This document shows, one piece after another, positions 4,514-61,352 of a DNA stretch of 64,000 bases. The notes under the pieces were generated by a model. It did not search any database, was not told where the DNA came from, and was given only the letters and a program-made list of their open reading frames with translations. The number at the start of each line of letters is the position of its first letter. Within the stretch, counting starts at the first letter, position 1. The position numbers and the translations under genes were made by a program. Origin of the DNA: Daphnia carinata (Eukaryota); the NCBI RefSeq assembly GCF_022539665.2, contig NC_081333.1, forward strand, positions 186,001 through 250,000. The letters are read 5' to 3'.

Positions 4514-4979
4514 TTAACTGTAATAAATAAAAGGTATTTCATCGGGTCCATACTGGTACTCTTGATCGGGACGCGTGGGTCTTTTGGCAAACCCCTGGTT
4601 GTTTCCATCCGGTATGTTCACGGGTCGACTTCCATAATCGTACGGACGTCCTAATTGTTTAAAATCATTACCGCATAAATGGCGCAGCTTTAACCAATTT
4701 CCTTTGAACTTGTCAAAGATAAGTTATGTAAGATAATTATGTTTGAATTACTGATTTTATAAACGCGCTTGTAAAACGTAGCGTCGACGACGTGGCCCCG
4801 TTCAATGTCCAAAACGGCCAATGCCTGAAAGGCCACCAACAAAACCATCACTCGCCACTAGTATTTTAGATGAAAGAGGAACACAGTTACTTGAAAACGT
4901 AAAAACAGCAGAAACTGCACAAATCAAGCATCTCATTGGTCAATGAGCATTTGACTATTCTTACCTTAAACTCTGACAT
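4514..4979 (-). CDS. Small secreted protein, 3 exons, ending ...EYQYGPDEIPFIYYS*
   Basis: MSEFK|WRVMVLLVAFQALAVLDIERGHVVDATFYKRVYKI|RRPYDYG...YYS* with GT-AG junctions. Clear paralog at 12065-12500. Confidence 0.85.
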
Positions 4980-6181
4980 ATTACAAACCATTATCTGAGC
5001 ACTCCCAAGATTGATATGCCAGGCCAAGAGGGTGAAGGCTTACTGCTGACCCGGACATCCATAGGCTGATTTTTATAAGGAACTTCTACATGCGTAGGAA
5101 GTGGAAAGCAGTAGAGACCTAAACAAGGAAAAATCGTTATCAAGGCAACCATTGAAATATTTGCATCCATGCAAGAAATTGCCACAAAAAATCTTTCAGA
5201 TGATTCAGATCATTCAGATGGCGCAACAATAATACATAGAACCCGTCCCACCATACACATAGACTTTGGCAATCAGCGTTGACTGCCTATATTTTTTCGA
5301 AATAGATCACTGCCAATTAAAAACTGTGTGCGGTTGGGACACCTGTGTGATTTCATGACACCGGATACGATGTCGTAGTGTGCCCTGTTGCTTAAACATT
5401 TACGTGCGTTTGTGTAGCATGAATCCTATTGCCAGTTTTACTAGCCAACAGTGCTTCTGCCATCAATTCACATGCTGAATGCTGATTCTCAATTGTTACC
5501 GGTTCCATGTGATTACACTGAAGGCAACAATGACAAAGACTATACATTTCTGCTAATCGGAAGATTTGAATAAATTATGTTCAGTACGAAAGTTTAAGGT
5601 AGCACGAAGCTATGTCCTATTACGCAGAACAGCCAAGTTGGTCTGCAAAACAAAACATGCAAAAACAACTTACTACAGCCGACTGACGTAGGCAACCTGT
5701 ACTCTGCCTCTAACTGGGCGGTAATGGCTCAGACAGAAGGATGGGCGATCAAAAATCACCTGGGGTTATGTAAGGAAAAATTGAAAACTAGAAAACAACG
5801 TTCGATTAGGCCACAACCGAACCGTGACAACCTACGAAAGGGCAGACCTTGAACCTCAAACGGCATACCAAATATACTTGTTTAAATATATGCACGCAGG
5901 CTTGTGTGAGAGTGAACGGCATCCAAACAGAAGGCCAAGCGAAGCTAAATAAGGAAACGAAAACCATATGTAAGAAAACACCGAATGAATGTACAGTATA
6001 ACAATGTATTGTTTAAAAAATTCCGAGCAAAACGTATCGATTAAACGTTAAAAGAAAACCAGTAAAAATAGATAAATGCAAATGAGAAACATAATTATGG
6101 TGTGAAGCGATGTCGTTTCCAAGCTCGTGTAGAGAAAAAATCTTCCTTATAAAAACGGTGCTGCAACAATCAGCGAGTCAT

Positions 6182-6664
6182 TTACCGTCCATACCCGTAA
6201 CCTCTACTCAACAAACAACGAAACAAACGTGAGTCCATGTTCAATACAAGTTCCAGCAATCGAAATTTTTACCCGTATCCGTAAGGTCTTCGGTAACCAT
6301 GATGGTGATGATGATAATGGCCATAGCCATGGCCATGACCGTAACCGTAACCGTATCCAGGGTAGCCGTAAGCACTACCCAGGGCGGATCCAAGCAAAAA
6401 TCCGAGTCCGAATTGACGTTTAGGGCGTGCTTCTGATACAATCGGCTCACCAGCGACTAATCCTGGATTGACTGGAACTCCGGCATCAGCTTCCAATGGC
6501 ACGACTTGAACGTTCTGTTGGGCAACGCTATACGCCACCACCGACAAAACAACCTTTATAAACAGCACAGTTTCAAAACATTAGTCCACGTTTGATTCTC
6601 TTTTGAAATTGTAAGAATATGAAATAGAAAAAACACTTACCAAAACGAATAGAAGGCGAGACAT
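6182..6664 (-). CDS. Secreted Gly/Tyr/His-rich prepro-peptide, 3 exons
   Basis: MSRLLFVL|VVLSVVAYSVAQ...RPKR-QFGLGFLLGSALG...HHHHH...YG|GYGYGR*. TATA-like TATAAAA at ~6731-6737. Confidence 0.9.
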
Positions 6665-7345
6665 GTTGTGGCCGCGCTTCCTTTGCTTCCAATCGCCCAA
6701 CTGCGATACGATGCACCTGGCCTTTCAGGCTTTTATACCTGGTTGCTCAGAGCCCGCAAGGTACGTACCCCTAATACATCTTGTCTAAAGCAATAGCTTA
6801 CCTGTACGTGAGGTCGTTCAGGACGTGGTACGATGCATTTTTCTGCCAACTAGCGTGGAAATAAAAAAGTCAGCTAAGAACCCGTGGGCTATTTTTTTTT
6901 TTCCAGCATTTTCCATGCCGGCCGAACATTCACACACTGTGAAGTCATGAGGAAGCAATATTGAAATGGCTAGGCTGCTTCTTTTCGTGGTGATGGCGCA
7001 GAAAAGCTACAAACAAAGACGCCAGGGTCACCTTGAACTTGCCCACAAACCCTGTCCAGCGCTCCATCTCTTATATAACGTCAACGATAACACACTGCAT
7101 TTCTTTTTATTACTTTCTCAAGCATTCTTTTTGCAATAAAATCGCGTTTTTCTCTCGGATTTAACGACTGTCTATTAAATTAGAAACAGGGTGCGAAGAG
7201 TCGATTGCAATGGCAAAAGAATTCAAGCGCAAATAACAAAGAAAGTGAAAGAAGTTGCAACGGGGAGAAGAAAATTATTCGTCACGTATAGTGACTTCAA
7301 ACCGTAATCGATAGCATCTCGTACGTTTTTTTCATGAATTTCTTC

Positions 7346-7822
7346 TTAACCGTAGTAACCGTGACCTCTGTTCAGAAAAATATATGAATATCCCCACCGA
7401 AGGCTGGAGCTAGTCTGCAATATAATCACCCGTATCCATGGTATCCTCCGTAACCTCCATATCCATGGTATCCACCATATCCACCGTACCCTCCATAACC
7501 GCCGTATCCTCCATAATAAGGACGACGGAGTGCTGCTCCAACCAACAATCCGGCAAGGAAGGGTCGATGGCGTTTAGGCCGCCCGTCGTTGATGGCAGTA
7601 ACCGACGGGCGAAATGAATTTCCTCCTTCGTCTTCTATTGGAACAATTTCGTCACTGTCCAGACTGGAGCAGAAAGCGGCCAGAAACGTGGACAACAAGA
7701 TGACCTTTTTTGTAAAGCAATACGTCAAAACCGATCGCATATATCAATATGAATTCCAAGTAGACGATTAGAATTAGACTTAAATGTAAAAGAATTACCA
7801 AAACTAAGAGACGGCTGGACAT
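7346..7822 (-). CDS. Secreted GGY-repeat prepro-peptide, 3 exons
   Basis: MSSRLLVL|VILLSTFLAAFCSS...RPKR-HRPFLAGLLVGAALRRPYY(GGY)n|GHGYYG*. TATATAA at ~7890. Confidence 0.9.
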
Positions 7823-8629: not shown

Positions 8630-9670
8630 GGGATGTTCATTTTCGTGTTCCTTGTTAGATTTTGCATCTAAACCGTATCTACTTATCTAGATTTAACGAT
8701 AAAATATTTAAATAGGAAAAGTCGGGCTTATTTTGTCGGGCTTAACATTTCTATCGCACGCACTTTTATATTTTAAATTACTCAAAAACCATAAACTCTA
8801 CGTAAAAACAAAGGTCATTTTCGTGTTCCTTGTTAAATTTTGAATCTTATTCATATATAGTTATCTAGATTTAATGATGCTATTTTTTAAATAGAAAAAT
8901 AAATAAAAATTTTTAAGCCCGACTAAATAAATAAACCCGACTTCTTTTGTTTTTTAGGTTTAATTGGAAAACTATGAGGCCAATTGAAATATAGACTGGA
9001 TTTTCGCGAATAGCATGCAATTCTGCATCGAAATCATATATTTATAGCCAAATTTGAAATTTGGCCAAAATTGAAAAAGTGGGAAGGCCTTCTCACTTTT
9101 GTCAAAATCGGTCAAAATCGAAATCTCTTAGAATTTCATGAAAATCACACGACATAGTCAAAATTAAACGCTGATTTCGATTATGTTAGTGGTTTCTTCG
9201 CTAAGCCGGCCGTTTTCAAAATAAACTAAAAAAAATGTGAAAAGTCGGGCTTATTTTGACGCTCGGCCGACAAAAAATAAGCCCGACTTTTTTGTTTTTT
9301 AATTTTTATTCAAAAACGACAAGGCTAATTGAAAAATAAACTAGATATTCGTAATTGGCATTCAATTCTGCATCGAATACATGTTAAAACACATGCCAAA
9401 TTTGAAATTTGGCCAAAAATGAAAAAATGGCAAGGCTATATAGTCTTCTCACTTTTAGCAAAATCGGCGAAAAACGAAATTTCTTGGAATTCGAGAAAAA
9501 TCACACGGTATAGTCAAAATTGAACGCTGAGTTCAATTATGTTCGTGGTTTTCTCATGAAACCAGCAATTTTCAAAATAAACTAAAAAAAATGTGCTATT
9601 TTGGCATTGCAATACATCGAAGCGAACAATTTATTAGCGCGCCAGTACGCTATAGCGCTAGATGACACAT
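8630..9670. mobile_element. Dispersed copy of the palindromic repeat family related to the satellite
   Basis: AAGTCGGGCTTATTTT and AAATAAGCCCGACTT inverted motifs (8720, 8915, 9241-9290). AAAAAGTGGGAAGGCCTTCTCACTTTTG and AACGCTGATT blocks match the satellite unit. TAGCGCGCCAGTACGCTATAGCGCTA at ~9635. Confidence 0.75.
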
Positions 9671-9844
9671 CATAGTTCTTTACCAAACAATAAAATCTAC
9701 GTAAAAACAAATTTTAAAAATGTACACCTATATACGTCCCAAACGTCGGAAGCCAATGCAACTGTTCAAAAAACAAAAAGAAACAATCAAATTCTGACCA
9801 ACGACTGTGTGGATTAACAAACTCTCTGTTTACTTTTGTGTAAA

Positions 9845-10359
9845 TTAGCTGTGATAGATGTGAAAGTGGTCCGGATGCTCGTAGTCAAATTTCATGTGCC
9901 TTCGAGGGTTATGTTGGTAGATGGGTCTTGCATTTATCACCTCCGGTCGTCTGGGAACGCGAATCCGATAGCGTAAGGTGCTTAAATCAGCAGTGTCGCC
10001 AATGTAAGCATGATAGCGCACAGGTCGCCCTACTATTGCAACAACGGTGACAATGGCGTGCAACAAAAATAACAAACATAACAATGGAATCATTTTTTGC
10101 TTACCGAAAGGCTGCCTGATTGGATTTCTAGTAAATGAAGGACGATTAAAGTGAGCCCTGTAAACGGTGGCGCTAGCGTTCAGTTGACGGCGTCGACGTC
10201 CAGCCTCAACTGGTGAGGCAACCAGCAACAACACGACACACAGGAAGAGGATCGACTAATTGAAAGCACAAAGGGCACATAGGTTTCAATTACATAACAC
10301 ACAAGATGTATGCAATCAACAACAAACTGCGATCGTCTTACCAAATGATGGAGCTTCAT
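9845..10359 (-). CDS. Small secreted Arg-rich protein, probably 3 exons, ending ...DYEHPDHFHIYHS*
   Basis: MKLHHL|SILFLCVVLLLVASPVEAG-RRRR-QLN... with a probable in-frame intron GTAAGC...AGTAG at ~10031-10103. The C-terminus resembles the genes at 4514 and 12065. Confidence 0.8.
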
Positions 10360-14020: not shown

Positions 14021-14613
14021 TTAACCATAGTAGGAACCACCGTAGTATCCCTGGTTTCCGTATGAGCCGTAGCCACCTGGACGGCCACCGTAATTGCTAT
14101 ATCCGTGATTATATCCAGAATATCCCTGGTTGTATCCACCATAACCACCGGGACGTCCACCGTAGCCTCCGTAATTTCCGTAACCTTGATGGCCATAACC
14201 TCCGTACTGATGTCCTATTATTTCGATAAACAATGGGAATAAAACGGTCAGTGCTTCACAATGCAAAGTCTTGTTTAATGTGAGTTCCAAACTATGGCAA
14301 TATACATCTGGAGCACTTAATCATTAAAGCAATGCAATTCTATCAAATGTAACTAAGGTATTTATCTAATGCAATAAATCTTAACGCAAATACCGTAACC
14401 GTAGCCGGGAGAGCCCAAAGCTGCTCCCAGAATGGCGTTGACAAGTTGGCGACGTTCACGAGCGCCTTCAGCGACGCTGACGAGGGCCAAAACGGCAACC
14501 AGGACGCACAGACTCAACTGTTGTTTTTCCAGTCAGCCAATTGCGAAATACATTAGCATAAGCATTAAGATAATAAAACAAATTATTTATCTTACCAGGA
14601 TGCGACGGCTCAT
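14021..14613 (-). CDS. Secreted Gly/Tyr-rich prepro-peptide, 3 exons
   Basis: MSRRIL|LSLCVLVAVLALVSVAEGA-RERR-QLVNAILGAALGSPGYGY|GHQYGGY...GGSYYG*. TATAAAAA at ~14686. Confidence 0.9.
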
Positions 14614-15660: not shown

Positions 15661-16937
15661 CTAATCTGCATTCATTGAACGATAATAATGGTGAGCCACA
15701 GCAGACCAGTCGATCGGGTATCTACCACGGCTTGATGTAACACCGAAGTCTTGTTGTTTCACTGCGGACGATTCAGCACCCGCATCGACGGGGACAGTAG
15801 GAGCCTCAGCTTCCGTTTTCGGAGGTGCGTTTCCGCTCAAAAGTTCAGAATAATAAGCCGGATAGCTATTGCCAAAATCGGCCAAATCAGGGATAGAATC
15901 AGGAGCGTCGGAATCGCCTCTGTCTCGAGTTTGAAGAGGACGGTATCCTTTTTTGTTTTTGAAACATTTATGCATTGAATAAATGATTAGGTTTCCAATC
16001 AAAACGTCCTTAGATAAAGGATTATGTACCTGTTGACATTACACCGTAGCCTGGTGCCACAGGATAATAAGGACCAGCACCGGGAACGTAAGTTCCAGGC
16101 ATGTAAGTACCAGCTGTTGGAACGTAAGCTCCGGGCCCGTAAACAGCACCAGGCATGTAAGCCCCAGCTCCGGAAACGTAAGCCCCTGGAACATAAGCGC
16201 CACCCATGTTATTGTATCCAACACCTGTGCAAATGGGTTAGCGAAATCTCTTTCAATCATCAAAGTTTCTTATGGCAGGGGCTTGTTTAACGTCTGCCAA
16301 CTTTAACGTGTTTACCTGTTGTGTAGGGATAGCCATTGCCAGCGTAATTGGCGATACCACTGGCCAAAAGTGTTCCCACTCCAGCTGCTAATGCGTTGGT
16401 CACGAATCCACTTCCTGTTGATTCGTGTTTCTCTTCATTTCTATCATCGAACATCAACTGCTGGTCGTTTACATCGTGTTCGATTCCCCATCCACCTGTT
16501 GCTTCCTGATGCGGTGCTTGCCAGTCTTCACCATTGGCACTGGGTTGAGCCTCAACAATCACAAGCGTTGAAATCAGCGACAACTAAATGGAGCGAGAAC
16601 AGATGAAAAACAAAAGACGGGAGTGATCAAAGGGGGAAAATGAACAGAACACGACAACTAATCAGAGTAAGAGGAAAGGTAAGGAAAATGGCGTGGTAGG
16701 CGTTGAAGCGCAACTTTGGTTGCCACTACTCCAATGGATGACGTGACATTTAAAAATGACAAGGGCAAAGGAGGGAACCACCTGAGGACATGGGGCGTTT
16801 TAAAGTCATAAACAAGTCAAGAAGCAGGATTTGCTGACATAGATGAAATAGATTGTAACTTCTACGGGTTGTTATGTGCTATCTTTTACCAGTAACGCAG
16901 TTGAGGAGAAGTGTCGAATGGTAGAGAGGAGCTGCAT
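15661..16937 (-). CDS. Secreted protein with GAYVPG/GTYMPG repeats and an acidic tail (3' end uncertain)
   Basis: Probable exon 1 MQLLSTIRHFSSTALL, then LSLISTLVIVEAQ..., hydrophobic ALAAGVGTLLASGIA, a YVPG-repeat exon (16030-16223) and an acidic exon (DRGDSDAPD...). Confidence 0.75.
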
Positions 16938-18269: not shown

Positions 18270-18747
18270 CTATCGTTCCTTAAACAAACAGAAATTAATG
18301 CAATCATAAAAACTTGAACGTGAATGATGTCAGCTCAATGAAGAGAGACACTGTACCTTTCGTGATGGCCACCAACTGGGCAGCCACCAATGCCTTTGAT
18401 GATCTCCGTGGACATTTCCATAGCCATAGTATGGTGGCCGATGACCTATCAATCTATTCATCTAATCAAAAGATCGAAGTGCAAATTTTATTGTGTCTAT
18501 ACCGAAACCGTGGTGTTGGCCTGTCAAGGCACTTTCAATGATCACGCCCAAGAAACGCTGGGGTTCACGTTTATGGCGAATAACCGATCCTTCAACGCTG
18601 GATGACATTAAGGAAAGCACAATTCCTAAAAGAACAATTGCCAACCTCCACTATGAATAAGAAAAATAAGCAAAATGATTAGGTAATATGTTATTCCATC
18701 CCTAAACGAGTGAGTTCAGTGTTTACCAAACGGAAGGAGTGAATCAT
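18270..18747 (-). CDS. Secreted prepro-peptide, 4 exons; C-terminal reading frame ambiguous
   Basis: MIHSFRL|WRLAIVLLGIVLSLMSSSVEGSVI-RHKR-EPQRFLGVIIESALTGQHHGF|GHRPPYYGYG...RHWWLPSWWPSRK|ER*. Confidence 0.8.
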
Positions 18748-19383: not shown

Positions 19384-19952
19384 TCAATGATGGCCATGAT
19401 GATATCCGTGTCCATGCTCGTGGTGTCCGTGTCCACCACTGTGGTGTCTGCACAAAGAATTGAATAACAAAATTACGAAAATGTAAGTCAATTCAATATT
19501 ATTTTCTCTTGAAATGTCAAACGAATTTTACCCTCCATGGTGGCCACCGAAGCCAAAGCCATGCCCATGTCCGTGTCCATGCCCGTGTCCATATCCGTGC
19601 CCGTGTTCGTAATGACCGTGACTGCCATGCCCATGGTAAGATGGAAGATGGCCTACTGTTCCCAATAATACAGCAATTCAAGAACAAGTGACAACGCAAA
19701 GGCAAATATCAATGCAGATACATACTGTAATGCCTAGAACCGTGTCGTTGTCCAGGAAGTGCACTTCCAAGCAGAGCGCCCATTAATCCTCCATGAACGA
19801 CTTGCGATTCCCGTTTGGGACTACTTGCCTCATTGTCAACGGCCAATGCAATAGCAACCAAACACAACTGAAATCAATTGACAGCAAGATGTTAGAATAA
19901 TTGAGTTTGGTAGAGGGTTGTGAGTTCTTACCAGGTAAAATGACCTATTCAT
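19384..19952 (-). CDS. Secreted Gly/His-rich protein, 4 exons
   Basis: MNRSFYL|LCLVAIALAVDNEASSPKRESQVVHGGLMGALLGSALPG...|(HG)n|...HGYHHGHH*. TATAAAT at ~20060. Confidence 0.88.
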
Positions 19953-20465: not shown

Positions 20466-21368
20466 TTAAAGAATATGATGACCGTGGCCGTGATTGCCAT
20501 GCCCGTGCCCACCAACACCGTGTCCGCCTGTTCCATGACTTCCAGTTCCACCGTGTCCGTGAGTTACGTGCCCTGTGGATGTTGCCCCGTGAATGTGCCC
20601 ACCAGTTCCATGTCCCCCAATTCCAGCGTGTCCGTAACCACCTCCGTGCCCAGCTGATCCTGTTCCGTGAACGTGGCTGCTAGTTCCGTGGCTTCCAGTT
20701 CCACCGTGTCCATGACCGGTGCCATGACCAGTCGATCCTGTTCCGTGGACGTGAGTGCCAGCTCCGTGCCCACCTGATCCGTAGCCATGTGTTCCTTGTC
20801 CGTGTCCACTACTTGCGTGAATGCCAGTCCCTAATGATCCTAATCCATGTCCGTGTCCTCCACTTAGCCCATGTCCATGTCCGCCTGAGCTTTGGCCGTG
20901 CCCGTGTCCGCCGTAGCTGCCGTGACCACCGTGGTGTGCGCCATGATGGCTGCCGTAACCGGGATAACCACCGTAGAAACCCCCGACAGGCCTGTGGCCA
21001 TGATGGCCATAACTTCCCAAACCAGCCGCATAAAGAGGTGAATAGCCTGGCACTTGTCCATCGGAAAAATGAAAGATTAACACCGCAAGGCCATCGACGT
21101 GCTAACCACTAGATCGCCTTACCGTAACCAGGAATACCACTCTGCCCAGTGAGGACACCTTGCAATAACGCGCCCAGCAATTGCGGCTGACGTTTGATAC
21201 GTGCCCCGTTCTCCGCAACATTCGCTGATAACGTCATTAACGGCAATGTTAATGCAATAAGGAAACCAAACTAAAAAAAAATGGTCTGTTATTTTCTGAA
21301 ATCTGAGCTGATAAAAAAGAGAACATCGTCAGTTGAGAACTTACCATCATACAAAGAGGGCCGTTCAT
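20466..21368 (-). CDS. Secreted Gly/His/Thr-rich protein, at least 3 exons
   Basis: MNGPLCMM|FGFLIALTLPLMTLSANVAENGA-RIKR-QPQLLGALLQGVLTG...|long GHG/HGTG repeat exon. CATATAAA at ~21460. Confidence 0.88.
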
Positions 21369-22665: not shown

Positions 22666-23484
22666 CTAGCCGTGATAATAATAGCGTCTGTGCCCACCGT
22701 GGTAATACTGGGGGCGATACTGCGGCCGGTATTGATAGCCATAATTATATTGCGGACGATATCCGTAATGAGGTTGGGCATAATAACCGCCGTAGTTGTA
22801 CTGAGGATATTCATCGTAATACGCGCTGAAATATCCAACAAAGGGTTATTCATTAAGCTCGTCTAAACAAAGAATAGCGTGATAAAAAATACCATTACCT
22901 GGATCTGTCGTTGTCCCAGCTGGATGACCAGCTTGATCTAGAAGCCCGGGATCGGCTGGACCGATAACTTGAGCGTGAGCGTGAGCTGGAACTCGATCGT
23001 CTTCTGGACCGGTCGTCGTCGAAAAGCCTAGCAAGAGCTACCCGTTTGGCTCTGAACGAATCAATTTCGATCAAGAACTGATCTGTCCCGTCATCTTTCG
23101 ATGAAATGATGTCTTTTTCACTTTGATCTATCGAGGGTTTTAGTGGAGGCAAAGCAGTCGCACTCGATCTGTAAGAAGCATTCGTTTTCTGTTATACTTT
23201 GATCTGCATGGTGTAAATGATTAAAAATTGTTCTTACACCGGAGGATTGAATTGAATTTCATCGAAACCAATCGGTCCGTACATCCATCTGGCTGCTACG
23301 TTATCGTTCTCATCGTCAAATGAGCCCTCAACGAACGGGACCCATTCTCCACCGTCTGTTCCATTGACGGCCGTTGTTAGAACAGGTAACCACAATCCAA
23401 CCTGAATGCAAAGAAGTTCATGTAACATCAAAAATGAGTAGAAAAATGTCATTTTACCAGGTAGAAAATTAAACGAGGTAACAT
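22666..23484 (-). CDS. Secreted protein with an acidic pro-region, a Ser/Arg tract and a Tyr-rich tail, 4 exons
   Basis: MLPRLIFYL|VGLWLPVLTTAVNG...|...RAKR-VALARLFDDDRSRRRSSSSSRSRSS...|AYYDEYPQYNYGGYY...RPQYRPQY...YYYHG*. Confidence 0.85.
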
Positions 23485-25504: not shown

Positions 25505-26097
25505 CTAATGATGTTTCAAGTGCATTGGCTGTTTATGCTGGACAGGTAGGGCTCGATAACGGCCGTATTTAGGGGCAGCTGGTTGGACACCAAACGACTG
25601 AGATTGCTGGTAAAGTTGTTGATAAATGGCAGCGAATGGATCCTGAGGCTTCGCTTGTCCGACGAAACTCGGCTGGGCAACGATCACTTGGCCGTCGTTC
25701 ATAGGCTGGGCAGATCCGCTGAGCAGGGCGGCTAGTTGTTCTCGAGTGACTAGGATACCGTACGGCCTCTGTTGTTCCTGGAATTGTGGTTCACTCAAAC
25801 CCCAGAAAGGTCTTCCGTAATAGGGTCCTACCGGCCTGTTGGGACGATGGCCAGAACCAGGCGGACGGTGTTGTCCTGAATCGATCGATAAACATGTTGC
25901 ATTTTAGCTCAAAAAGAAATCAAAGAGGACCATCCTTTTTAGTTAGAATCTGTACCCCCAGGATAACCGCCTTGTTGGGGATAACCAGGGTATGCGCCTG
26001 GATACCCTCCCTGTACTGGATAACCGCCTCCTGGATAACCTCCACCTGGATAACCCCCACCAGGATAACCCCCACCCGGATAACCTCCACCCGCGTA

Positions 26098-26169
<72 letters not shown>

Positions 26170-42731: not shown

Positions 42732-45076
42732 TTAATTCGTTTCAGATCCACCGGGCGGCATTGTTTCGCCCGAAGGTCCATGATATCGATAGGAGTTTTT
42801 CCAAATTTCGGCGTATACCATGGCCGAATGAAATCTATAAAAGATGCAGAGCGGCAGCGTAATGCGCTGAACGATGGCCCAAGGCAGAAATCCGTAAAAA
42901 TTGAGCTGAACCGGATTAGCTTCGACTTTTTGCATTTCGAAAGTGTAGACGAGCCACAGGGTCATGTTGGTGATCAACAAAAAAGTGACGGACTGTCGGC
43001 CCGGCTTCTCCAAATCCTGCTCGGCTGTGTTCACAATGCGTCTCGACATGTCCGAGATGAAAACCGTCTGTACCGTCACTTCGATGACGGACAACAGGCC
43101 GTTGATGAACACTAAAGTGGGCGGTTCTTCCGTCGAACTGCCCAGCGCTCCTGCGATCATAGAAAAGGCGGCATACATAAAAATCCCCAAGGCAGAGATC
43201 CGTAACAAAATGTTGCCCAGCTCTTCCATGTGCTCCGAATGGAAATGCAAATGCCGGGCTCTGTATTTTAAAAATATATATATTTATATTAATTAAATAC
43301 AGACAAAATCATCTGTATTATGAAATGATTACCTGTATGCGCCTAACGCCATGGCGAAGATGGAAACGAGAAGCAAAGTGCAATGGGCCGCGTAGCCCAG
43401 GATGAGTCCCAGTCGTTTGAATTGGGGCATGGGCACAAAAATGAAGAATAAGACGAGACAGAGGAGCGAAGCTGTCAGGAAAAAGAGGCCGATAAAGAGT
43501 TCCTTCGAAGCTCCAACACAATCGACTCTTAATTGACGAGTTTTGCTGTTCCAGATCGATTCGTCTCTAACGCCTCGGTTGTTATCTTCCGTCTTGTACC
43601 TAAAAAAAATCGAAATGCTTAATCACGTTTTGAAATTTTTGTCAACGGATTGAAATACTTTGGGTTGAGGCCAATATGTTCCCAAATGACGTAAAGAACT
43701 GCAGCGCCAATGAGCGAATATTCAATGAGGAAAGGATAGAGGAACGGAGCAGCGTCCATGATGATGTTGCCCAGGAAAATGCGACGGCCACACGAGACAT
43801 TGCCCGTCAATTCCCACAAGCTAATTTCTTTTTTGCTCTTAACGGCTGCAACAGTCGGTGCGGCTGACGTCGCAACGCCGATGGGCGCATCGCCCAAAGT
43901 TTCATTCACTGTCCATTTGAAACACATTTAATTTTTAAACACTGATACAATTAAATACAGAACATTAATACCTACATCAAAAAGGGCAGAATTTCCTCCT
44001 TCGAAACTTTCATCGCTTCCGGCCGCAGCGGCTACAGCCTCGACAATGTGATGTAGGAAAGCGTTGGAAACGGATTCATAGCCATCGACAACCGGTTGGC
44101 TTTGCTGCAGTTGTTGGCTCCTGGCAATTTTATCATAATAATTATAATGACCATTGATTTCTTTCAACGATTCTCTAACCAACGTCCGAATCCAAACGCA
44201 AATGTTGGTGGCAACGCAATGCATCAATCCGAAACGGGCAATCACTTTGAATTTGTGAATGTTGAGCTGAAAAAAAAAAAATAATAATGAAAATGAACAG
44301 TTTTAAAAACGAATAGTTAATGCCATACCCTGGCAGACACGAAGATGAAGTACATTTGGAGGAAGACAAAGGCTGCGTGCAGAAGCGGATTGATGCCACG
44401 CAGCAGAGCGAAACAGGGCGAGTCGGGCGGCACTTCGAGAAAGGCACCGAATTCCAGCCCGTCATAAATCATAGTGCCCAGCCCGAAAGCCACAGCGCCG
44501 GCCCTTAAGAACAGGCTTCCATGGCTGTGCTCGTTATCGGAGACTTTAGTTTTCCTCGCCTTTCGACCGTTGGCAGCGCCGCCGGTGTTTGTTACAATGT
44601 CGCTGTTGCTGTTCATCGTGCTGTAGGAGACGATCTCGTTGGGCGAATCTCCTACGCTGAGGCCGAAATTCTGCGGCATCCATTGCTTCGTGGCGCTGCT
44701 TTTGCGTGACGATGGGTGTGGATTCTGACTGACGCCTTTCGACGAGTCGTCCATGTCGATCGGATCCGTTCGGCTGAATTTCCTGCGCTCGCCGCTGCTC
44801 TCGCCGCTGAATTGATTGAAGAATCGACGTAAAGGCGTCGGCGCAGAGACGATCTCGTTCTCGACCGACATGCTGGAATCGGGATTGCGCACAGCGTCGT
44901 AATCGCTGGTTTCATCTTCGGTGGTCGTCGTCGGATTGGCCATGTTCGATTCCCTCGATCGGCTTAATTTCTTCAAGCGTTTCTTCTCCTCTTGGCGTCT
45001 TTTCGATCGCAATAAATAGCCGAAGACGTACAGAAAGAACACGATCGACACGGCGTACAAGAAGGCGAAGAAAGTC
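42732..45076 (-). CDS. Otopetrin-family proton channel (OtopL-like), 5 exons seen; 5' exon(s) unresolved
   Basis: Family motifs HGSLFLRAGAVAFGLGTMIY, ARFGLMHCVATNICVW, PFLYPFLIEYSLI, VDCVGASK, KPGRQSVTFLLITN and LPLCIFYRFHS. Confidence 0.93.
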
Positions 45077-45999
45077 TGTGAAATTTGAAAAGCAAAAACA
45101 TTAATAACAATAGCCATCAGTCACTTGTTTGTAATGCATTTGCATGTGATTGCCACATGGGAAATTTGTAAGCGTCACCCTATGGCACAAATGTGCTGAC
45201 AGGGTAACGCCCTTATTATGTTCTCACGAATCGTATGCAGACGACTAAATTAAAGCTGAAAATGATATCATTTGAATAAAGAAAAAAGAATGTACCGTAC
45301 AGCCTAGAGGAATAACATTTTACCTCCCTGTAAAATTATGCATTTGGGATAAACTAAAAAAAAAGCCCCAAAAAAAAGAATGGCCCGAACACGTTCGCAA
45401 TTTCCAGGAAATTTCGCGCTCCTTTCAACTCCTTTTGAACGTAACATGCAACTGCGTTGCTTGTTGAATTGCTGGTATGCAAATAGCGACCCAAGCTATT
45501 TGGCTATACCGCAGGCTATTGTTTTTCTTTTTAAGGTTTGAGTTTAATTACGTAATGAACAGGTGTAGGTATTTTACTCAAAATAAAGTGCCCAACCAGG
45601 AATTGATACGGAATTTCACCGAACGTCTGGAACAAAAAAAAAGGAATTTAAAAGAGATGGTACACGTTGCAATATTTCAATAATGATGAATTACCTCTTT
45701 TGTTTTGCGCTGGGCGTTTCAGCTTACAACTCTTTCTCATCAGATAGGTATCTTTTTAGAATTAATTAATTTCACAACTACTTGAGATTCAATTATTTAA
45801 TGAGACAGTGGGCTATGACAGCCCACTGTTTTTCGAATCAAATTTTCTTTTTTGTTATTAGCCTTACAAAGAGGCCACGGACATGATTGCGTGTCACGAA
45901 GCAAATGGATTTGTACAGAGGCCTATGGGCTATGTAGGCAACAGTTCGTATAAAAAAGTAATAACGGCTAGTTTAAGGAGAAAAACACTTACATAATCG

Positions 46000-49467: not shown

Positions 49468-50502
49468 TTACATTCGGTAGAGTATCACATTGGTACGAAT
49501 CTCTTGCACAAATTTCAGTGAGTCATCGATGACATTTCTGACATCTCGAATTTTGTTCGCAGCGGCATTTTCGTTCATGTCATCAAGCAGATATATCCAC
49601 GACTTTAGATATACTTTCCAGTTTCGGGTAACTTGTGTGAACTTCCCGTGGCAAGTGGCATTTCTGCCTTCCATAGCGTCCTTCAGTATTAGCGCGGTAG
49701 ACCTTTGAGAATGACCTGTTCCGAAATAGTTCTTGTAATTTTTTTGCTCTTGTATTATGAGCTTCAAATTGGCGAACACGTCAATGTCAATTGACGTTCC
49801 TTTTTGTTTTGTACGTACCAAAAAGTTTCGAAGAGCAGGGCCTAGATGTCTTAGTAGGCAACTGTACAAAACGAGGCTTAGGCCGAATGCGGCGTTTTGA
49901 TCGTAGGTGCCACTATTACATGAAAACTTCTTATCATCGACAGCGTGTTTGTAATGACCGCTCATGAGGCGACTGTAAACAGCCTCTATGTCGGTGGCAC
50001 TGCATTCGTCTCCAACAATTCGGCAAAGTTTTACCAAAGCTTCAAAATGGGTTATCCAGTTTGTCTTTAATGCCTGGAGATTTAAATGGCATGTTTCATT
50101 TCTTGCATAGACAACGTTGCGGATCTCCACGCAGGATAGAGAAGAAACAAGAAAATGCCCGTTGTTGTTGTAGTTCATTAAGGTCTCCATTACGTCCGCA
50201 CAGTCGTAATTAATGGCCATCGGTGAAAGGATACGTTGTCGGCACAAGAACCGCCGCGCAGCCGGAGTGGCGTAGTAGGTCAAACAATAGAATAAGACCT
50301 CAGCTACGTATATGATGTTGTCATCACCCACTTGGGGTGAAACAGGCGGTCGTGCTACGGTCTGGGCTGTAGTCGCGCTTTTGGTCTCTTCTTCGGGTAT
50401 TTCAGTACGGAAAGTTCTTGTAATATTTCGAACTGGATGAATGTTTATTTTTACCATCTTGGATTCTTGTGAAAAACTCGTCAAGAGGCAAATAAATAAC
50501 AT
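49468..50502 (-). CDS. Protein with two tandem HEPN-like (Swt1-like) domains, candidate RNase; likely start at ATG 50457
   Basis: Uninterrupted 344-codon ORF with a ~146-aa internal duplication. Each repeat carries an R-x4-H motif: RNETCH (50086-50103) and RNATCH (49648-49665). Confidence 0.75.
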   Translation of the reverse strand: MLFICLLTSFSQESKMVKINIHPVRNITRTFRTEIPEEETKSATTAQTVARPPVSPQVGDDNIIYVAEVLFYCLTYYATPAARRFLCRQRILSPMAINYDCADVMETLMNYNNNGHFLVSSLSCVEIRNVVYARNETCHLNLQALKTNWITHFEALVKLCRIVGDECSATDIEAVYSRLMSGHYKHAVDDKKFSCNSGTYDQNAAFGLSLVLYSCLLRHLGPALRNFLVRTKQKGTSIDIDVFANLKLIIQEQKNYKNYFGTGHSQRSTALILKDAMEGRNATCHGKFTQVTRNWKVYLKSWIYLLDDMNENAAANKIRDVRNVIDDSLKFVQEIRTNVILYRM

Positions 50503-51542
50503 TATAAATTTTAATCATTATTGCAGCTTTATGTAAGAGGACGAATATCTCGTCCAAATCGCATGTCCAATCGTGGGTTTTCGACATAAAATCTTTTTTC
50601 ATATCATTTTTTGCTGCAAACTTAACACGGATTATTAATGTTCCAATTTTTAGAAATGTTGTTCAACCATGTTTAACCAACTTTTCTGAAAAGCAAAAAC
50701 AGAAAAGATCATTTAACGCATCCCTAATAGGGCTGGGCTATGGGTTACCTGAGATACCTGAGATCCTGTTTCAATTGCAAATTCGCGCATGCGCGTCGCG
50801 TTTCTTGCAATCTGGCAACGGTGCTACCCTGCTTTTAAGATTTCTTATTTTGATAAACATCGCCTGCTGAGGCTTGTACACACAGTCTGCTACCTCTGCT
50901 AACATTTTTAAAGTATTTTGTTTTTACCACAAAGGTTAAACTAAATAGTTAATAAAATAAAATTAGCTTTTATAACAGTTGTGAATTTAGTGATATATGG
51001 TTGATCGCGCAAGAATGTTCTAATAATAATTTTTTTTAAATAATAAGTTTTTATACTAGTAGCCTTTTTCCTTTATGAGTGACTACTCTAAAGCTAATTT
51101 AGAAAATTACCAAAATTAATTACAATGATTGACTGATGTTTTAGTTTATTGTTCTGTACAGCATACAAATATCGTATCAATTCAAATCCTTCACATATGT
51201 GAAAGCATTGGACAATTTGTTGTGAAATATTCCACCTACCAAACGCAAAACAACTGAATACAATCAGACAAGCATTGTACGATGTTTGTCTGGCAAATAA
51301 CAAAAGTAACTTGACCATTAAAATTGCTGTAGGTTTATTGGACTATGAAAACACATCAGGACCAACAAACCCGCATAAGACGATATACAAAGACTACAAC
51401 TATGCAAAGATAAGTACATAAATTCAAAATATACTAAGAAAAGCTTTTAACTGAGGAAAATGGTGAGTGGAACGGTGAAAACTGAGAAACTATCACATAG
51501 ACATTGGTATTTTCTGGAAGGTAAAGCAGAATATTTGCGATT

Positions 51543-53130
51543 TTACCATAAATCTGGATCGTCTTGAATCGGAACGTGACGGCGGAACTGGGCCTGAATG
51601 TTTTCGGGTAGCGAACTCATCTCTGCCATGTTCCGGAACAGACCAGGTGGCAAGAAACCAATCAAAAGCGGAGCGTGCTGCTCCAAGATTCTTCTTCTTT
51701 CCTCTGCGATTGCTTCGTCCTCGGCCTGTTGACGCAATTCTTCCATGCGGCGTTCTTCCTTCTTCTCAGCGAATTCCAATTTCTTCAGCTGACGTCGCTC
51801 TTCCAGTAAGGCCGCCTGCTCTTTCTGCAATTGCGTTAGATCCTTGTGCCTTCGTTCAGCGACCTCTCGTTCGGCCTTTTCCTCCATCGCGGCTTGCTCC
51901 AGCATCTATCAGAAAAATTCGAATGGTATCAAGCCCATTTTGCTAGGTATTAGGGAATCGCGAGTATGTTTACCCATAAACGTTCGTTAAGTTCTTCTTC
52001 TTTCTGCGCTTTCTTTTTCAGTTCAAGTTGGCGCAATTGTTCAGCCATATCTTCATTCCATTTGATTCTTTGGGCTTGAGTCATCTTCTCTAGTTCTTCA
52101 GCTTTTTTAGTTTCCAGCTCTTCCTTCTCTTCACAGCCATATTCAATCCATAACTCTTCTCGTTCACGGCGCCGGCGCTATGTATATTTCATTGAAAATT
52201 TTTTATTTTTTACGCATTGTTATTTATCATGTGGTTATTATGTACCTCTTCGACTTCCAAAGCTTTTTGAAGCCGATGGCGGATAGCAGCAAGTTTCTCG
52301 GCTTTCTCTTTCCTTTCTTGCTGCTGCATTTGACTCAATCGACGTCGTTGGAGTTGGCATTCTTCAATTAACCTATCTTCCTCCATTTCAATAAACTTCT
52401 GGATGGCTCTCCATTGGTTCTGCAATTTGATACAATGGTCTAATTCTTCTGCTAGGCGACGCTTCTTTCGCTCTCGGTCTTCTCGCTCTCTGGAATAAAA
52501 TTTTTTGTTTCAGGATAACTCATTACTTAAAACAGTGATTCCTCTTACTGTCGTTCTCTTCTCAGTTCAGCCATGAGAATTTCTTGCAGATAAATGTCAT
52601 CCAATTGCCGCTCTTCCAACATCTCAAGCTGCTTGGCAGCCCTGTATTGTTGGGCTTGATTCACCAGTTCTTGACAATACTTTTCCTTTTTCCACTTCTC
52701 ATACAGAAGTTTCCTAATTTCTAATTCATGATCCAATTTGAGCTGCTTTTCCATCTCTTCTCTTTCTTGCAATGTAATTTGCTAAAAAAAAATTTGTTTA
52801 TTAATTACAGTTTACTTAAAAGTAACAGCAAAATGAATGCAGATATTTACAGACCTTTTCCATCACCTTCAAGGATTCTTTTTCATCCAGTTGCTTCTTT
52901 CTCTCTTTCAGTATGTATGCCATTTTTAGTTTAGATTCTAGCTCTCTGATTTCTATGCTACTTTCAATAATTTTACGCCTTAACGGTAGACAAGACATAT
53001 TATGAGCATTGGGATGTGTGTTATTGCAAAATAACCACCTATACCTGAATGCTTCATTTTTAAGATCTTCGGCTGTAGCAGTTGATAGCTTCCGAGACAA
53101 ATACTTGTTCTGAGCATCCCTATGGCTCAT
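51543..53130 (-). CDS. MNS1: Meiosis-specific nuclear structural protein 1 (trichoplein/MNS1 coiled-coil family); start approximate
   Basis: Multi-exon E/K/R/Q coiled coil containing ESSIEIRELESKLKMAYILKER and the C-terminal EERRRILEQHAPLLIGFLPPGLF, both characteristic of MNS1. Confidence 0.85.
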
Positions 53131-53228
53131 CTGCAGTCTATCAAAGATATTCGCTTTTAAATGAGTGATGTGAATAGAAAAGTGGTAATCGAAACGTTCA
53201 AGATCATGTTATTTATACGCGGTTATTC

Positions 53229-53913: not shown

Positions 53914-55249
<1,336 letters not shown>

Positions 55250-55823: not shown

Positions 55824-56610
55824 TTATTGTCGTTCATTGACTGCAGAATTTGCGCCTTCATAGGAAGACGAATCCGAAGATGAACGATAAGGCCGCTGTT
55901 GGCTGCCGTAGCCGTACGGATTGAAAGCACCCTGACCGTACAGACTCTGTTGATTGTAGAGGCCGTATTGTCCGTAAGGGCTTTGTTGGCCGTACTGGCC
56001 GTAGAGTCCACTCTGCTGGCCGTAAAGACTCGCAGGAAAACCTCCTACAGAACCGAAACCTGCACCACCCAAACCTGGATAACTTCCAACTCCGTAACTA
56101 GGATATCCACCAGCCCCGTAAAGAGATCCACCACCGAATCCTTGCTGGCCATAACCGGCGCTGCCGAGAGCTCCTGGATAGGAGGCACCGAATCCACCCA
56201 GTCCAGCACCGCCGAACTGTTGCTGTCCGAAGCCTGGATAGCCAGTGACAGCCTGTTGGCCGTAAAGACTCTGCTGGTTGTAACCGATCGCTGCTTGGCT
56301 GCCGTAAAGCGATCCGGAAGAATAAGGTGAACTCAATCCACCGTAAGATGGAAATGCGGATGCCCCTCCGAATCCTCCTAGTCCCGTGCCGAAACCACTG
56401 CCACCTAAAATGCTTCCGAATCCGCCCAAAAGATTCCTCCCCGCAGGCTGTTGGTCACTACCAGCTGCTGACGGTTCCTCCGCTGACGCTGTGCTCCAAC
56501 ACACCGCCACAATCACCTAAATAAAACAAAGAAAATCGTTTAAAACTTTGGGTTTTTATGATTTATGATTAGATTTTCAATACCAAAATCCATCGAGTGA
56601 CGTATAACAT
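55824..56610 (-). CDS. Secreted Gly/Tyr/Gln-rich protein, 2 exons
   Basis: MLYVTRWIL|VIVAVCWSTASA...PAGR-NLLGGFGSILGG...(YGQQ) repeats. TATAAAA at ~56766. Confidence 0.9.
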
Positions 56611-58475: not shown

Positions 58476-59073
58476 TTAACCATAGTACGGCCTGTAAGAA
58501 CCAATCATGAATAAACGTTAATTTCTTTTCGTCATCGATAATTCGCTTATGTTTGCAATGTAATACTAACCCGCCGTAGCCGTAAGGTGCATAACCACCA
58601 TAGCCACCATAAGGATAAGACTGATAGCCATAGCCGCCGTAGCCACTGTAAGGCGCATATCCGCTGTATCCATAAAACGGAGGGTATCCTCCATATCTAT
58701 CACAAAAGAAAAAAAAAAGAAGTGCATCGTTTATGTGGACCTTTGATTCCTAGTGCAAATGCTAAGCATTGACAGTTCATATACGTACGTACCCATAATT
58801 AGCGGGATAGCCGTAAGCAGCTCCACCAATCAAACTTCCTAGAAGCCCTCCCAAATGTCTTCCTTGGGCTTCACCGCCACCTTCGGATCTCCCTGCTGCT
58901 CCTTGCTGTCCTTCATCGCAAGAAACGCCATTCCAAATAGCCGCCAACATCATCTTGAATTCAAAAACCCCGCGCCAAAATTTCAAAGAAAAAATAAGTT
59001 AGTGAGGAACTCAATGAATTGTTTTCATTTTTTTTACCAGCAAAACAGCGAAGAAAACAAACTGATTCTTCAT
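58476..59073 (-). CDS. Secreted Gly/Tyr-rich prepro-peptide, 4 exons
   Basis: MKNQFVFFAVLL|MMLAAIWNGVSC...AQGR-HLGGLLGSLIGGAAYG|YGGYPP...|PYYG*. TATAAAA at ~59186. Confidence 0.9.
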
Positions 59074-60690
59074 TTCTTTCCTTTTGATTCGTTCACAAAG
59101 AAAACGAGTCCAGGCCTCTACTGTTCACTTCTGTTCGTGTCGGAGTCGGAGAATGAATGCCGAGGGACCGCCAACAACAACACCGTTTTATACGCATCAA
59201 TAAGGTGCTAGTGTCCCAGGTGCGTGAGTGGCCTATGCGACCTTGAAGCGCACTGTCTGAACGCCGGTTACAACAATAAAAAGAAAACAAAAAAGATGCT
59301 GGTTGTAGCATAATGGGAAATGGTTAGCGTTTCTTCGAGAACGAAATGGATCTACCTTCACCTTGAACTCAATTCCTTTAGACAACTTCAACTAGGCGTA
59401 GATTTCTGTAGACTACGGCGGAAGTCTCGGTTTTTTATAACACGCTCGTATTAAAATCATGTTTTGATTAACAATGACAAGTCCTTTTTGTCATACGTTT
59501 AGCATAAAAGAAACGATTTTATCTAACATGAGATGTTTAAAGATTTTCTTTTAGACTCGTCACGCGATGAAATCATCACGAGGAAAGTTTTGCTGAACTG
59601 CTCACGAATGAAGTCATCCTCGCCAATTTCTTTTTTGTTTTTAGACATATGAAAAACCACGCCCCATTTCGTTCTTTATCACCTCCCAATAATTTTGCAA
59701 TTCTATTTTTTCTGTGTGTTTTTCATGGCGATATGCCCAATCAAGGACAGTAAAAAAAAAGACGCGTGATGTTGCGCTTCTGCTGTCACGGTATCAGGAC
59801 ATGCAAGCCGATGGTAGGAGAACCATGGCCTACATGTGAACCTTGCGACGGAATACAAAAGGGTGATACTTATCTAGGAAAACCCCAACAGGGTATAACA
59901 TAATCATGGGATATACAAATCCTTGTCTTTGTGTGGTTGAGAAGGAATAATGCACTGCATCACCACGCCTTGAGGACATCGGATGTCTGGGCTTCCTGCC
60001 TGCCGAAATTGAAGGCCACTTTAATATTAAATAGCACTAATTTTAAGTTTTGATAAACATCAATGAATCGGTCTACTGAATCGCAACGTTTAGTGCAATT
60101 CAACTGAATCCAAAATGAACTTTTTTCGCATAGACAATCGTGCTCCAATTTCTCTCTTACCGGCATGAATGTTCACTCTCACTATCACATTGTTTTTTTT
60201 TTACGTAACAATGCTGACGCATGATTTCTTTTTTTTTAATCCTAGAAGAGGTCGGCCAACACCACAACTCAAACTAGATCGTAAGAACTAAAAACAGCTG
60301 TCTCCCGCATTGCAGGTTTTAAATCAAACAAAAAACAAGTGTATGCATAACGAGATGGATTGAGAACGCAGCTTGAATCGATGATGGCTGTTTATTTTCT
60401 TATTCCTTTCTTTACGTGCTATTTTTTGGGAACGAGTGAGAAAATAAGACAATGATAACACATGTGGGTCATAGTGTACAATATATAGAAACTATATAGA
60501 AATTGAGGCGTGGTAAATTTCTGCGGCGCTTTAAAAATGCGAAATTGTTCAGTCATTATATCAGGTTTGAGTGGAACAATTGTTTCTTAATGACCATCAG
60601 GTGTAAAAAAAAAACGTTGCTAACGTTTTTCACTGCAGTCGTAAATAAATACATAAATCGGCAAACGATGTCGACTTGTGGGCACAAGTT

Positions 60691-61352
60691 CTAGAAGCCG
60701 TAGCCGAAACCTGGATAGCCGAACCCTCCTAGTCCGTAACCGAATCCGCCAAGTCCATATCCATATCCTCCCAATGGATACCTATATTCCATCACATAAA
60801 TCCAACAACATATTTATAACTGAATTAGTAGAATAATTTGAGGAAATTTTAAAACTTACCCGATGCCTCCGTACAAGGGATAAGAAGGCAGAGGTAAACC
60901 GTAGCCTAGAGGAAGTCCGTAACTAGGAATACCAAATCCATAACCTAATCCAGGATATCTATTTAACCACCAAAAACACGACATAAGGAAAAGGTAGAAT
61001 TAAAATAATCGATGGCAATTTTAATTACCCGATACCTCCACCGTACCCGAAACCTCCGAATCCATGTTTCTTATGGTGGGTCCTTGCCGTAGCGACGCCC
61101 GTTCCAGCGCTAGGACTTGCGGCAGCTGATTTGGCTGGAGCAGCAGCAGCTGCAGGCGCTGGATCTGCTGGCAAAGGAGACGATACAATCGGTGATATCA
61201 AACCAGCCGAGACCACCAACATCTACCGTCATGTTCCACACAACACATACACGAAAAAAAAATTAAGAACAAACATAAATTTGTGTTTTAAAGAACATAT
61301 TCCAATTGAGGGCGTCACAACTCACCAGGTACCAACAACACAAATTGGGCAT
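60691..61352 (-). CDS. Secreted Ala/Pro-rich plus Gly/Tyr/Leu/Phe-rich protein, 4 exons
   Basis: MPNLCCWYL|MLVVSAGLISPIVSS...ARTHHKKHGFGGFGYG|YPGLGYGFG...|YPLGGYGYGLGGFGY...GF*. Confidence 0.87.

Follow-up and report, generated by a model that had tools for sequence, protein, structure and literature searches.

Several described systems resemble the subject of this analysis, a cluster of co-oriented genes for putative secreted low-complexity proteins in Daphnia carinata, found on contig NC_081333.1 of RefSeq assembly GCF_022539665.2 between positions 186,001 and 250,000 (this whole stretch of 64,000 nucleotides is called the window below, and all coordinates refer to it). Cornman described Drosophila tandem arrays of Pfam-less, Gly/Pro-rich and cysteine-free secreted proteins that are mutually unalignable and were judged likely structural (PMC2932725). 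As in the Daphnia set, the genes of these arrays are small, clustered and co-oriented, and their Gly-rich products have a signal peptide, cysteine in the signal peptide only, short tyrosine-centred motifs, no Pfam domain and poor alignability between neighbours. They differ in that neither the RX(K/R)R site nor the glycine zipper of the Daphnia set was seen described in the consulted parts of that paper, and in that the Pfam GYR and YLP models found no match in the Daphnia exons scanned. The Daphnia cluster belongs to the same kind of array. Tandem low-complexity secreted proteins as such are thus already described; what is new is the combination of an RX(K/R)R site, a glycine zipper and a Tyr/His-rich tail with R-P-x-Y motifs.

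The CPR cuticular protein genes (Cornman et al. 2008, PMC2259329) are similar to the Daphnia set in their signal-peptide intron, very short first exon, TATA box, tandem clustering and scarcity of Cys and Met. In Anopheles, an intron falls within the signal peptide in 86% of the intron-containing CPR genes, where the first exon measures 3-36 nt; a TATA box together with an initiator (INR) is present in 93%, and the mature proteins contain 0.03% Cys and 0.4% Met; AAPA is also named there as a cuticular motif (PMC2259329). The Rebers-Riddiford (R&R) chitin-binding domain is absent from the Daphnia exons scanned, so the cluster genes are not members of this family. The NLP-29-cluster and caenacin (CNC) peptides of C. 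elegans also come from clustered genes, and are basic, Gly/aromatic-rich (largely Gly/Tyr) epidermal products that are secreted into the cuticle (PMC2453101; PMC11993903). The earlier note on this DNA had pointed to them, and the likeness stands for Gly/Tyr composition. The nematode hallmark QWGYG, which there directly follows the signal peptide, however, occurs in none of the 16 Daphnia models, and the nematode peptides are reported, in the part of the source consulted, to lack internal dibasic sites (PMC11993903) and are not mentioned there as having a zipper, so the resemblance is compositional. Shematrin and prisilkin-39, which belong to the shell matrix of molluscs, are basic, Gly/Tyr(/Ser)-rich secreted framework proteins of chitin-mineral exoskeletons. 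Proteomics of barnacle shell identified a 'prisilkin-39-like' protein that is basic and rich in Gly, Tyr and Ser, and the same paper presents prisilkin-39 as chitin-binding (PMC4519255). RefSeq names the G02 orthologues of the present cluster after these proteins, and such names reflect automatic low-complexity similarity. Neither shematrin nor prisilkin-39 is known to have a propeptide, an RX(K/R)R site or a zipper.

In the window, whose G+C content is 32-45% and whose introns are short and of GT-AG type, 16 minus-strand genes were modelled (G01 to G16, spanning 4514 to 61352). Stop-to-stop open reading frames (ORFs) were listed, then donors, acceptors and short ATG exons by coordinate, and these were assembled into GT-AG splice models, all in frame, with introns of 56-306 nt. 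External validation is available for three models: G02 is letter for letter XP_057371895.1 ('shematrin-like protein 1 [Daphnia carinata]'), G07 is letter for letter XP_059350275.1 ('uncharacterized protein LOC132087800 isoform X2' of D. carinata), and G11 aligns over every splice junction with D. sinensis GHT06_012280 and D. magna A0A0P6E486. The remaining 13 of the 16 models are predictions only; members other than G02 and G07 show 84-86% identity to D. sinensis and D. magna proteins. The earlier note had counted about 18 genes. A scan of both strands for a short phase-0 ATG exon followed by an intron and a hydrophobic continuation recovered 11 of the 16 and gave no convincing extra gene, which lowers this count, while the common minus-strand orientation holds for every model and for each of the 14 window ORFs that reach 48% Gly+Tyr or more over 25 residues, all of which lie inside gene models. 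At least six unrelated genes break up the cluster: two sulfotransferase-like genes, an otopetrin gene, a 348-amino-acid ORF, a TPH coiled-coil gene and, on the plus strand, a TLC-domain gene of TRAM/LAG1/CLN8 type.

All 16 genes share one plan. The first coding exon is 18-48 nt long, ends in phase 0 and lies inside the hydrophobic core of the signal peptide (the earlier note gave 15-48 nt; an alternative 15-nt first exon exists for G01). Every N-terminus has a hydrophobic core whose Kyte-Doolittle value, averaged over ten residues, is 2.24 or more; a crude rule rather than SignalP was used to place the signal-peptide cleavage sites. A TATA-like box lies 72-138 nt upstream of the ATG in 12 genes, and of the 13 genes that have at least two introns, nine carry the second one in phase 1. 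The mature parts are low-complexity sequences rich in Gly, Tyr, His, Pro and Gln (18.9% Gly, 9.0% Tyr and 4.8% His when pooled), with 1 Cys and 23 Met among 2754 pooled residues, and all cysteines fall within the first 24 residues. Traits of cuticular-type genes, which are a kind rather than a family, are found in the set: a signal-peptide intron with a short first exon in all members, a TATA box in three quarters of them (12/16) and near absence of Cys and Met. Tandem repeats of 15-78 bp in the DNA underlie the tails, and all the tail types listed before (GGY, GH, YVPG, GGYP, NTGYG and YGQQ) are present.

Known domains contributed little to this picture. The Rebers-Riddiford consensus, whose absence had already been remarked on, gave no Pfam Chitin_bind_4 (PF00379) match in 15 cluster exons at E<=0.1 or in 8 exons at E<=10, and GYR/YLP (PF02756, PF02757) gave no match in 8 tail-bearing exons at E<=10, although HMMER filters drop most weak matches and a related motif, R-P-x-Y, is enriched (see below). 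Pfam matches to cluster genes were sub-threshold or compositional only and were rejected, for example Pentapeptide_2 on the NTGYG repeats of G13; weak echoes below curated cut-offs were Gly-zipper_Omp on G11 (E=0.026) and a PetC membrane-anchor on G05 (E=0.005). The ESM Atlas gave no usable match, either with exon 2 of G02 or with the orthologue of G11 in D. magna. Likewise, scanning 16 promoters of 500 bp for FTZ-F1, kappaB, EcRE half-site, GATA and Grainyhead-type consensus strings yielded no usable enrichment.

Short motifs were more informative. RX[KR]R occurs in seven of the 16 genes (G02, G03, G04, G05, G07, G09 and G10) against 0.79 expected, and none of 2000 shuffles reached seven. A strict hydrophobic small-xxx-G-xxx-small zipper is present in five (G02, G08, G09, G11 and G15) against 0.37 expected, again with no shuffle of 2000 reaching the observed number, and a looser score finds a hydrophobic glycine-zipper segment in 10-11 genes. 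RX[KR]R, zipper and tail are combined in five genes: G02 (RPKR plus QFGLGFLLGSALGS, 6374-6427), G03 (RPKR-HRPFLAGLLVGAAL, 7528-7581), G05 (RERR-QLVNAILGAALGS, 14410-14460), G07 (RHKR-EPQRFLGVIIESALTG, 18519-18578) and G09 (RIKR-QPQLLGALLQGVLTG, 21145-21201). G08 has SPKR, hence a dibasic KR only, and then GGLMGALLGSAL (19754-19825), while G14 and G15 have a single Arg in GR-NLLGGFGSILGGSG (56394-56441) and GR-HLGGLLGSLIGGAA (58816-58863), respectively. No basic site accompanies the four-glycine zipper of G11 (VGGIIGSLIGGAVGG, 26341-26385) or the zipper-like stretch of G06 (LAAGVGTLLASGI, 16353-16391); in G12 the zipper position is degenerate (LSSFLQGALADYS, 29156-29194), and G01, G04, G10, G13 and G16 have no zipper. 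Every processing-site and zipper string quoted in the earlier note was found again, and its furin-type interpretation of the site fits the enrichment and the conservation described below; RX(K/R)R is best regarded as a predicted, strongly conserved furin-type convertase site. Its proposal that all genes share one design of basic site, zipper and tail stands in so far as both motifs exceed chance, but the full design with RX[KR]R is confined to five genes.

Transmembrane glycine zippers follow the pattern (G/A/S)xxxGxxxG. G02, G08, G09, G11 and G15 have this pattern in common with them, in a hydrophobic context, but the Daphnia segment is 12-15 residues long and lies in a secreted, otherwise polar protein rather than in a membrane span. 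A further motif, R-P-x(0-2)-Y, which the earlier note had not named, is found in 11 of the 16 genes against 1.76 expected (none of 2000 shuffles reached 11), at 16 sites against 1.9 expected, in forms such as RRPYY, RRPYGY, GRPGGY, HRPPYY and YRPQY. It also occurs in members that lack the zipper, for example in G01 exon 3 (4514-4650) and the last exon of G10 (22666-22825). In G01, G04, G07 and G11, an exon preceded by a phase-1 intron begins with an Arg/His-Arg-Pro stretch or reaches one after a few residues.

C-terminal Gly was set aside as evidence of amidation. Six genes had been said to end in Gly or Gly-Arg; five of the 16 do so, against 4.0 expected from tail composition, so amidation is not supported beyond composition. 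Moreover, the apparent 'G-stop' ends of G02 (6182-6273) and G03 (7346-7430) are splice donors (GG|GTAA and GG|GTGA, respectively), and the 22-nt last exons of these genes give the C-termini GYGYGR and GHGYYG. 'G-stop' ends seen in raw translation can thus be splice donors.

Relatives outside the window were found in Daphnia only, as far as they are named. A word-indexed profile search of 5.8 billion proteins gave 25 matches at E<=0.01, and all the named ones are from Daphnia (D. sinensis, D. carinata and D. pulex). The search with a profile hidden Markov model that the earlier note had proposed was run exhaustively with HMMER on 1.84 billion cluster representatives and gave 19 matches at E<=0.001, of which 17 are proteins of 44-110 residues with the same design, the named ones again all from Daphnia. 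The other two, P0028 and P0029 (2873 and 2166 amino acids), were discarded as unrelated repeat proteins; P0028 has 2.6% Gly and 3.3% Cys. The relatives bear the names 'shematrin-like protein 1', 'transcriptional regulatory protein LGE1-like', 'prisilkin-39-like', 'uncharacterized' or 'hypothetical'. With 'shematrin-like', 'prisilkin-39-like', 'LGE1-like' and 'uncharacterized' as their only RefSeq labels, the genes do not all belong to a family characterised before, and no study of these Daphnia genes was found in the literature.

RX[KR]R, mostly as RPKR, is kept in 24 of the 25 relatives. Ahead of the site lie 1-11 Asp+Glu and 0-2 Lys+Arg; behind it, Asp/Glu are absent in 19 of 24, Cys is absent altogether, and Gln comes first in 12 of 24. 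Products are 45-60 amino acids long, with 2-4 Lys+Arg in most. In an alignment of 21 sequences, R51, K53 and R54 of the site and G59, L61 and G63 of the zipper are invariant or nearly so, while the pro-part is variable. Three Daphnia species retain the GYGYGR with which G02 ends. In D. sinensis, the locus tags 012270, 012271 and 012280 run in the same order as G02, G03 ... G11, and the arrangement is therefore conserved. Based on these comparisons, the cluster is real, non-random, conserved and restricted to Daphnia-type sequences. It represents a lineage-restricted, conserved module of RPKR-type site, glycine zipper and Tyr/His-rich tail, in genes that stand under borrowed annotation names.

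Within the cluster, kinship was assessed against the 2111 six-frame ORFs of the window. G02 and G03 are paralogues (profile E of 1e-10 to 1e-12): the G03-family profile finds G02 at E=1e-10, and at 1e-12 when trimmed to site and zipper. The next matches of the trimmed profile are the zipper exons of G05 (E=0.036) and G09 (E=0.042), and G08 follows after one profile iteration (E=0.39, then 0.064). G11 and G12 form a second pair (whole-protein phmmer E=1e-17). The zipper of G11 finds the zipper exon of G15 at 4.8e-5, and the reverse search gives 8.2e-5; the next matches are G08, G02, G05 and G09. Whole-protein phmmer, with E-values computed for the 16 sequences only, also links G05 with G07, G08 with G07, G05 with G03 and G05 with G02. 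When each of 11 zipper exons was left out in turn, six (G05, G07, G08, G09, G11 and G15) ranked first among about 2100 ORFs, at E from 0.0012 to 1.2 (G05 at 0.0012, G08 at 0.024), and G02 ranked third; G03, G06, G12 and G14 were not recovered. An alignable zipper across members, on which the family claim had been made to depend, is therefore seen for part of the set. The negative scores of G03 and G14 are probably due to HMMER bias correction on low-complexity ORFs. G06 and G14 have a zipper-like stretch by eye only and showed no link in any profile test. Taken together, these results point to two clear pairs of paralogues, with about nine genes connected in a network of links that are weak yet not random. 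The single diversified family of the earlier note holds for G02/G03 and G11/G12 and, more weakly, for G05, G07, G08, G09 and G15, but not for all members. G01, G04, G10, G13 and G16 share with the rest the gene plan, the composition and, for most, R-P-x-Y only.

Based on these features, the cluster may well encode secreted, low-complexity, Gly/Tyr/His-rich structural components of the extracellular matrix of cuticle or carapace (probability roughly 0.5). This interpretation is favoured because insect cuticular protein genes are described as having this gene plan and this composition, and because mineralised exoskeletons contain analogues. The Ala/Pro-rich stretch of G16 carries an AAPA-type motif. 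In addition, the match between the zippers of G11 and G15, with G08 and G05 next, ties the small members to proteins that are too long for typical peptides. In such a matrix, the epidermis would secrete the proteins, as it does cuticular proteins, and a furin-type convertase would remove a short, mostly acidic propeptide in the secretory pathway from G02, G03, G05, G07, G09 and possibly G08. The hydrophobic small-xxx-small segment thereby freed, a glycine zipper at the new N-terminus, could self-associate with its like, after which the Tyr/His-rich tails with R-P-x-Y might bind chitin or mineral, or undergo cross-linking through dityrosine or quinone-histidine chemistry. The larger zipper proteins G11, G12, G14 and G15 would assemble together with them in this matrix. 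If the proteins are structural, the module illustrates how removal of a propeptide may nucleate a matrix that is free of cysteine. The cuticle is involved both in host-parasite interactions and in predator-induced plasticity, two fields of research in which Daphnia is a leading model.

Several observations weigh against a matrix role. No chitin-binding or cuticular domain was recognised, with Chitin_bind_4, GYR and YLP all lacking a Pfam match in the cluster exons scanned. The small members look like classical prepropeptides, with an acidic pro-part and a basic site retained in nearly all relatives (24/25), and the GYGYGR end of G02 is conserved between species. Short first exons are not unique to cuticular genes (PMC2259329), and convertase processing is not described for arthropod cuticular proteins in the portion of the literature consulted.

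Alternatively, the run could be something other than one family, namely two or three small true families together with unrelated low-complexity genes, with convergent composition and a gene plan that is general to secreted proteins of Daphnia. This is conceivable but somewhat unlikely. It would account for the four of 11 zipper exons that the leave-one-out profiles miss, for the five members without a zipper and for the all-against-all phmmer result, which links only G02/G03/G05/G07/G08 and G11/G12/G15. However, strand, first-exon plan and phase are common to all 16 genes, the second intron is mostly in phase 1, and when the zippers of G11 and G15 serve as queries, every top match other than the query itself is a zipper exon from another member. 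R-P-x-Y extends to 11 genes, zipper-less ones included, and the miss of G03 reflects bias correction on a low-complexity ORF, as G03 is a clear paralogue of G02.

In the main alternative on function, the small members with a basic site (G02, G03, G05, G07, G08, G09 and possibly G04) would be host-defence peptides, cationic Gly/Tyr/His-rich products of about 50-220 residues released by a convertase, whose N-terminal glycine zipper would insert and oligomerise in microbial membranes. We regard this as unlikely, although much in the prepropeptide layout would suit it. G02 and G03 have acidic pro-parts, with 4 and 7 Asp+Glu versus 0 and 1 Lys+Arg, and products without Asp/Glu but with 3 Lys+Arg and 4-8 His. 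The relatives keep the site while their pro-part varies, Gln directly follows the cleavage site in G02, G04, G05 and G09, the GYGYGR terminus persists in three species, and the family is lineage-restricted and tandemly diversified. The NLP/CNC peptides provide a precedent for basic, Gly/aromatic-rich peptides secreted into a cuticle from clustered epidermal genes (PMC2453101; PMC11993903), and a survey of immune genes in the D. pulex genome is reported to have recovered no antimicrobial peptide (PMC2685406), leaving the role unfilled. Against this, zipper and gene plan also occur in the 240-480-amino-acid proteins G11, G12 and G14, which are unlikely to be peptides. The positive charge is weak, with 2-3 Lys+Arg in 53-82 residues (G02, G03 and G05) and 1 in 217 (G09), the nematode QWGYG is missing from every model and internal dibasic sites are not reported for the nematode peptides (PMC11993903), and C-terminal Gly occurs at the rate of composition. 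A bolder form, in which the small genes would be the missing antimicrobial peptides of Daphnia, a cladoceran-specific, tandemly diversified, convertase-released Gly/Tyr/His-rich arsenal secreted into the cuticle, is slightly more doubtful still; if the genes are defensive, the module would fill the antimicrobial-peptide gap of Daphnia.

As defence peptides, the products would also resemble holotricin-3 and tenecin-3, antifungal peptides of beetles that are secreted, cysteine-free and Gly/His-rich, like the tails of G08, G09 and G02. Neither is known to have a glycine-zipper N-terminus. Finally, it is very improbable that the genes encode precursors of signalling peptides (neuropeptide-like hormones) that undergo dibasic processing and amidation. 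Some members do have RX[KR]R sites, an N-terminal Gln or a C-terminal G or GR, but each precursor yields one long low-complexity product of up to 217 amino acids rather than repeated short conserved cores, the Gly endings occur at the rate predicted by composition, and a title/abstract-level literature search found no such Daphnia neuropeptide-like protein family.

The individual genes, all on the minus strand, differ in the arrangement of these elements. G01 (4514-4991; 3 exons, 89 amino acids) has a signal peptide followed by a Tyr/Arg/Pro-rich product with RRPYDYG, and neither zipper nor RX[KR]R; its first exon is 27 nt long, in phase 0 and with a TATA box at -86, and the alternative first exon of 15 nt is possible. 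G02 (6182-6664; 3 exons, 108 amino acids) consists of signal peptide, acidic propeptide and a Gly/Tyr/His tail that ends in GYGYGR on the 22-nt last exon. Its paralogue G03 (7346-7822; 3 exons, 106 amino acids) has RRPYYGG before a (GGY)n tail, and the protein is 84% identical to D. sinensis GHT06_012271. G04 (9845-10359; 3 exons, 117 amino acids) lacks the zipper and has RRRR after the signal peptide, with a basic, Arg/Pro/His-rich product of 88 amino acids. In G05 (14021-14613; 3 exons, 111 amino acids) a phase-1 intron follows the zipper and the Gly/Tyr tail ends in G, and G06 (16022-16937; 3 exons, 172 amino acids) has a 48-nt first exon, an acidic N-terminal part and a YVPG/YMPG tail.

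G07 (18270-18747; 4 exons, 88 amino acids) has HRPPYYGYG after the zipper. RefSeq gives two isoforms of 106 and 88 amino acids for this gene, LOC132087800 (P0035 versus P0008), and a relative, P0033, looks like an intron-retained form. The tail of G08 (19384-19952; 4 exons, 116 amino acids) is of Gly/His type with 28% His. G09 (20466-21368; 3 exons, 252 amino acids) has a Gly/His-rich product of 217 amino acids after the site, and its N-terminal part has relatives in the database proteins P0011, P0012, P0014 and P0017. The protein of G10 (22666-23484; 4 exons, 206 amino acids) runs from an acidic N-terminal part through RAKR and an Arg/Ser-rich stretch to a Tyr-rich tail with three YRPQY motifs.

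G11 (25505-27304; 5 exons, 483 amino acids) combines a Gln-rich acidic region, GGYP repeats and a conserved C-terminal part, and G12 (28464-30060; 4 exons, 458 amino acids) is its paralogue. The two share the Gln-rich region (26335-27177 in G11, 29156-29953 in G12), in which three acidic, helix-like 'D-L-P-x-E-V...Q' repeats can be recognised by eye. AlphaFold2 predicted helices for G11 exon 2 with six aligned sequences, in a weak model with a mean predicted local distance difference test (pLDDT) score of 38.2. An (AG)32 microsatellite at 26101-26165, (CT)32 on the coding strand, lies inside the predicted 101-nt third intron of G11, where it is placed because G11 aligns across its junctions with the D. 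sinensis and D. magna proteins, both of which skip this region. The (CT)32 stretch would act as the polypyrimidine tract of that intron.

G13 (39027-40162; 4 exons, 276 amino acids) has a signal peptide, a Gln/Ser-rich part and (NTGYG)n, the latter on DNA repeats of 15, 30 and 45 bp, with neither zipper nor RX[KR]R. G14 (55824-56610; 2 exons, 239 amino acids) ends in a Gly/Ser/Gln/Tyr tail with YGQQ, and G15 (58477-59073; 4 exons, 112 amino acids) in a Gly/Tyr/Pro tail closing with PYYG, the last mini-exon being predicted only. G16 (60691-61352; 4 exons, about 136 amino acids) has no basic site and joins an Ala/Pro-rich N-terminal part with one AAPA to GYGLGGFG-type repeats; its 3' end was taken from the ORF at 60694-60813.

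The rest of the window contains repeats and the interrupting genes. A satellite array at 275-3675 consists of 9.0 copies of a 376-bp unit with 95% matches, each unit with a probably meaningless minus-strand ORF of 135 amino acids, and a direct repeat at 8919-9595, between G03 and G04, has a period of 356 bp, 1.9 copies and 79% matches. The sulfotransferase-like genes (34092-35579 and 36380-37757) are tandem minus-strand paralogues with similar N-terminal exons and a weak sulfotransferase-domain match (E=9e-4, below the curated cut-off). They are followed by the minus-strand otopetrin gene at 42735-45120, two exons of which match Pfam at E=1e-58 and 2e-21, and by the uninterrupted minus-strand ORF of 348 amino acids at 49471-50514, in which no Pfam family exceeds the cut-off and two similar 'N-x-T-C-H' stretches can be seen by eye. 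The TPH-domain coiled-coil gene occupies 51546-53208 on the minus strand, and the TLC-domain gene at 54364-54819 is the only plus-strand gene recognised in the window.

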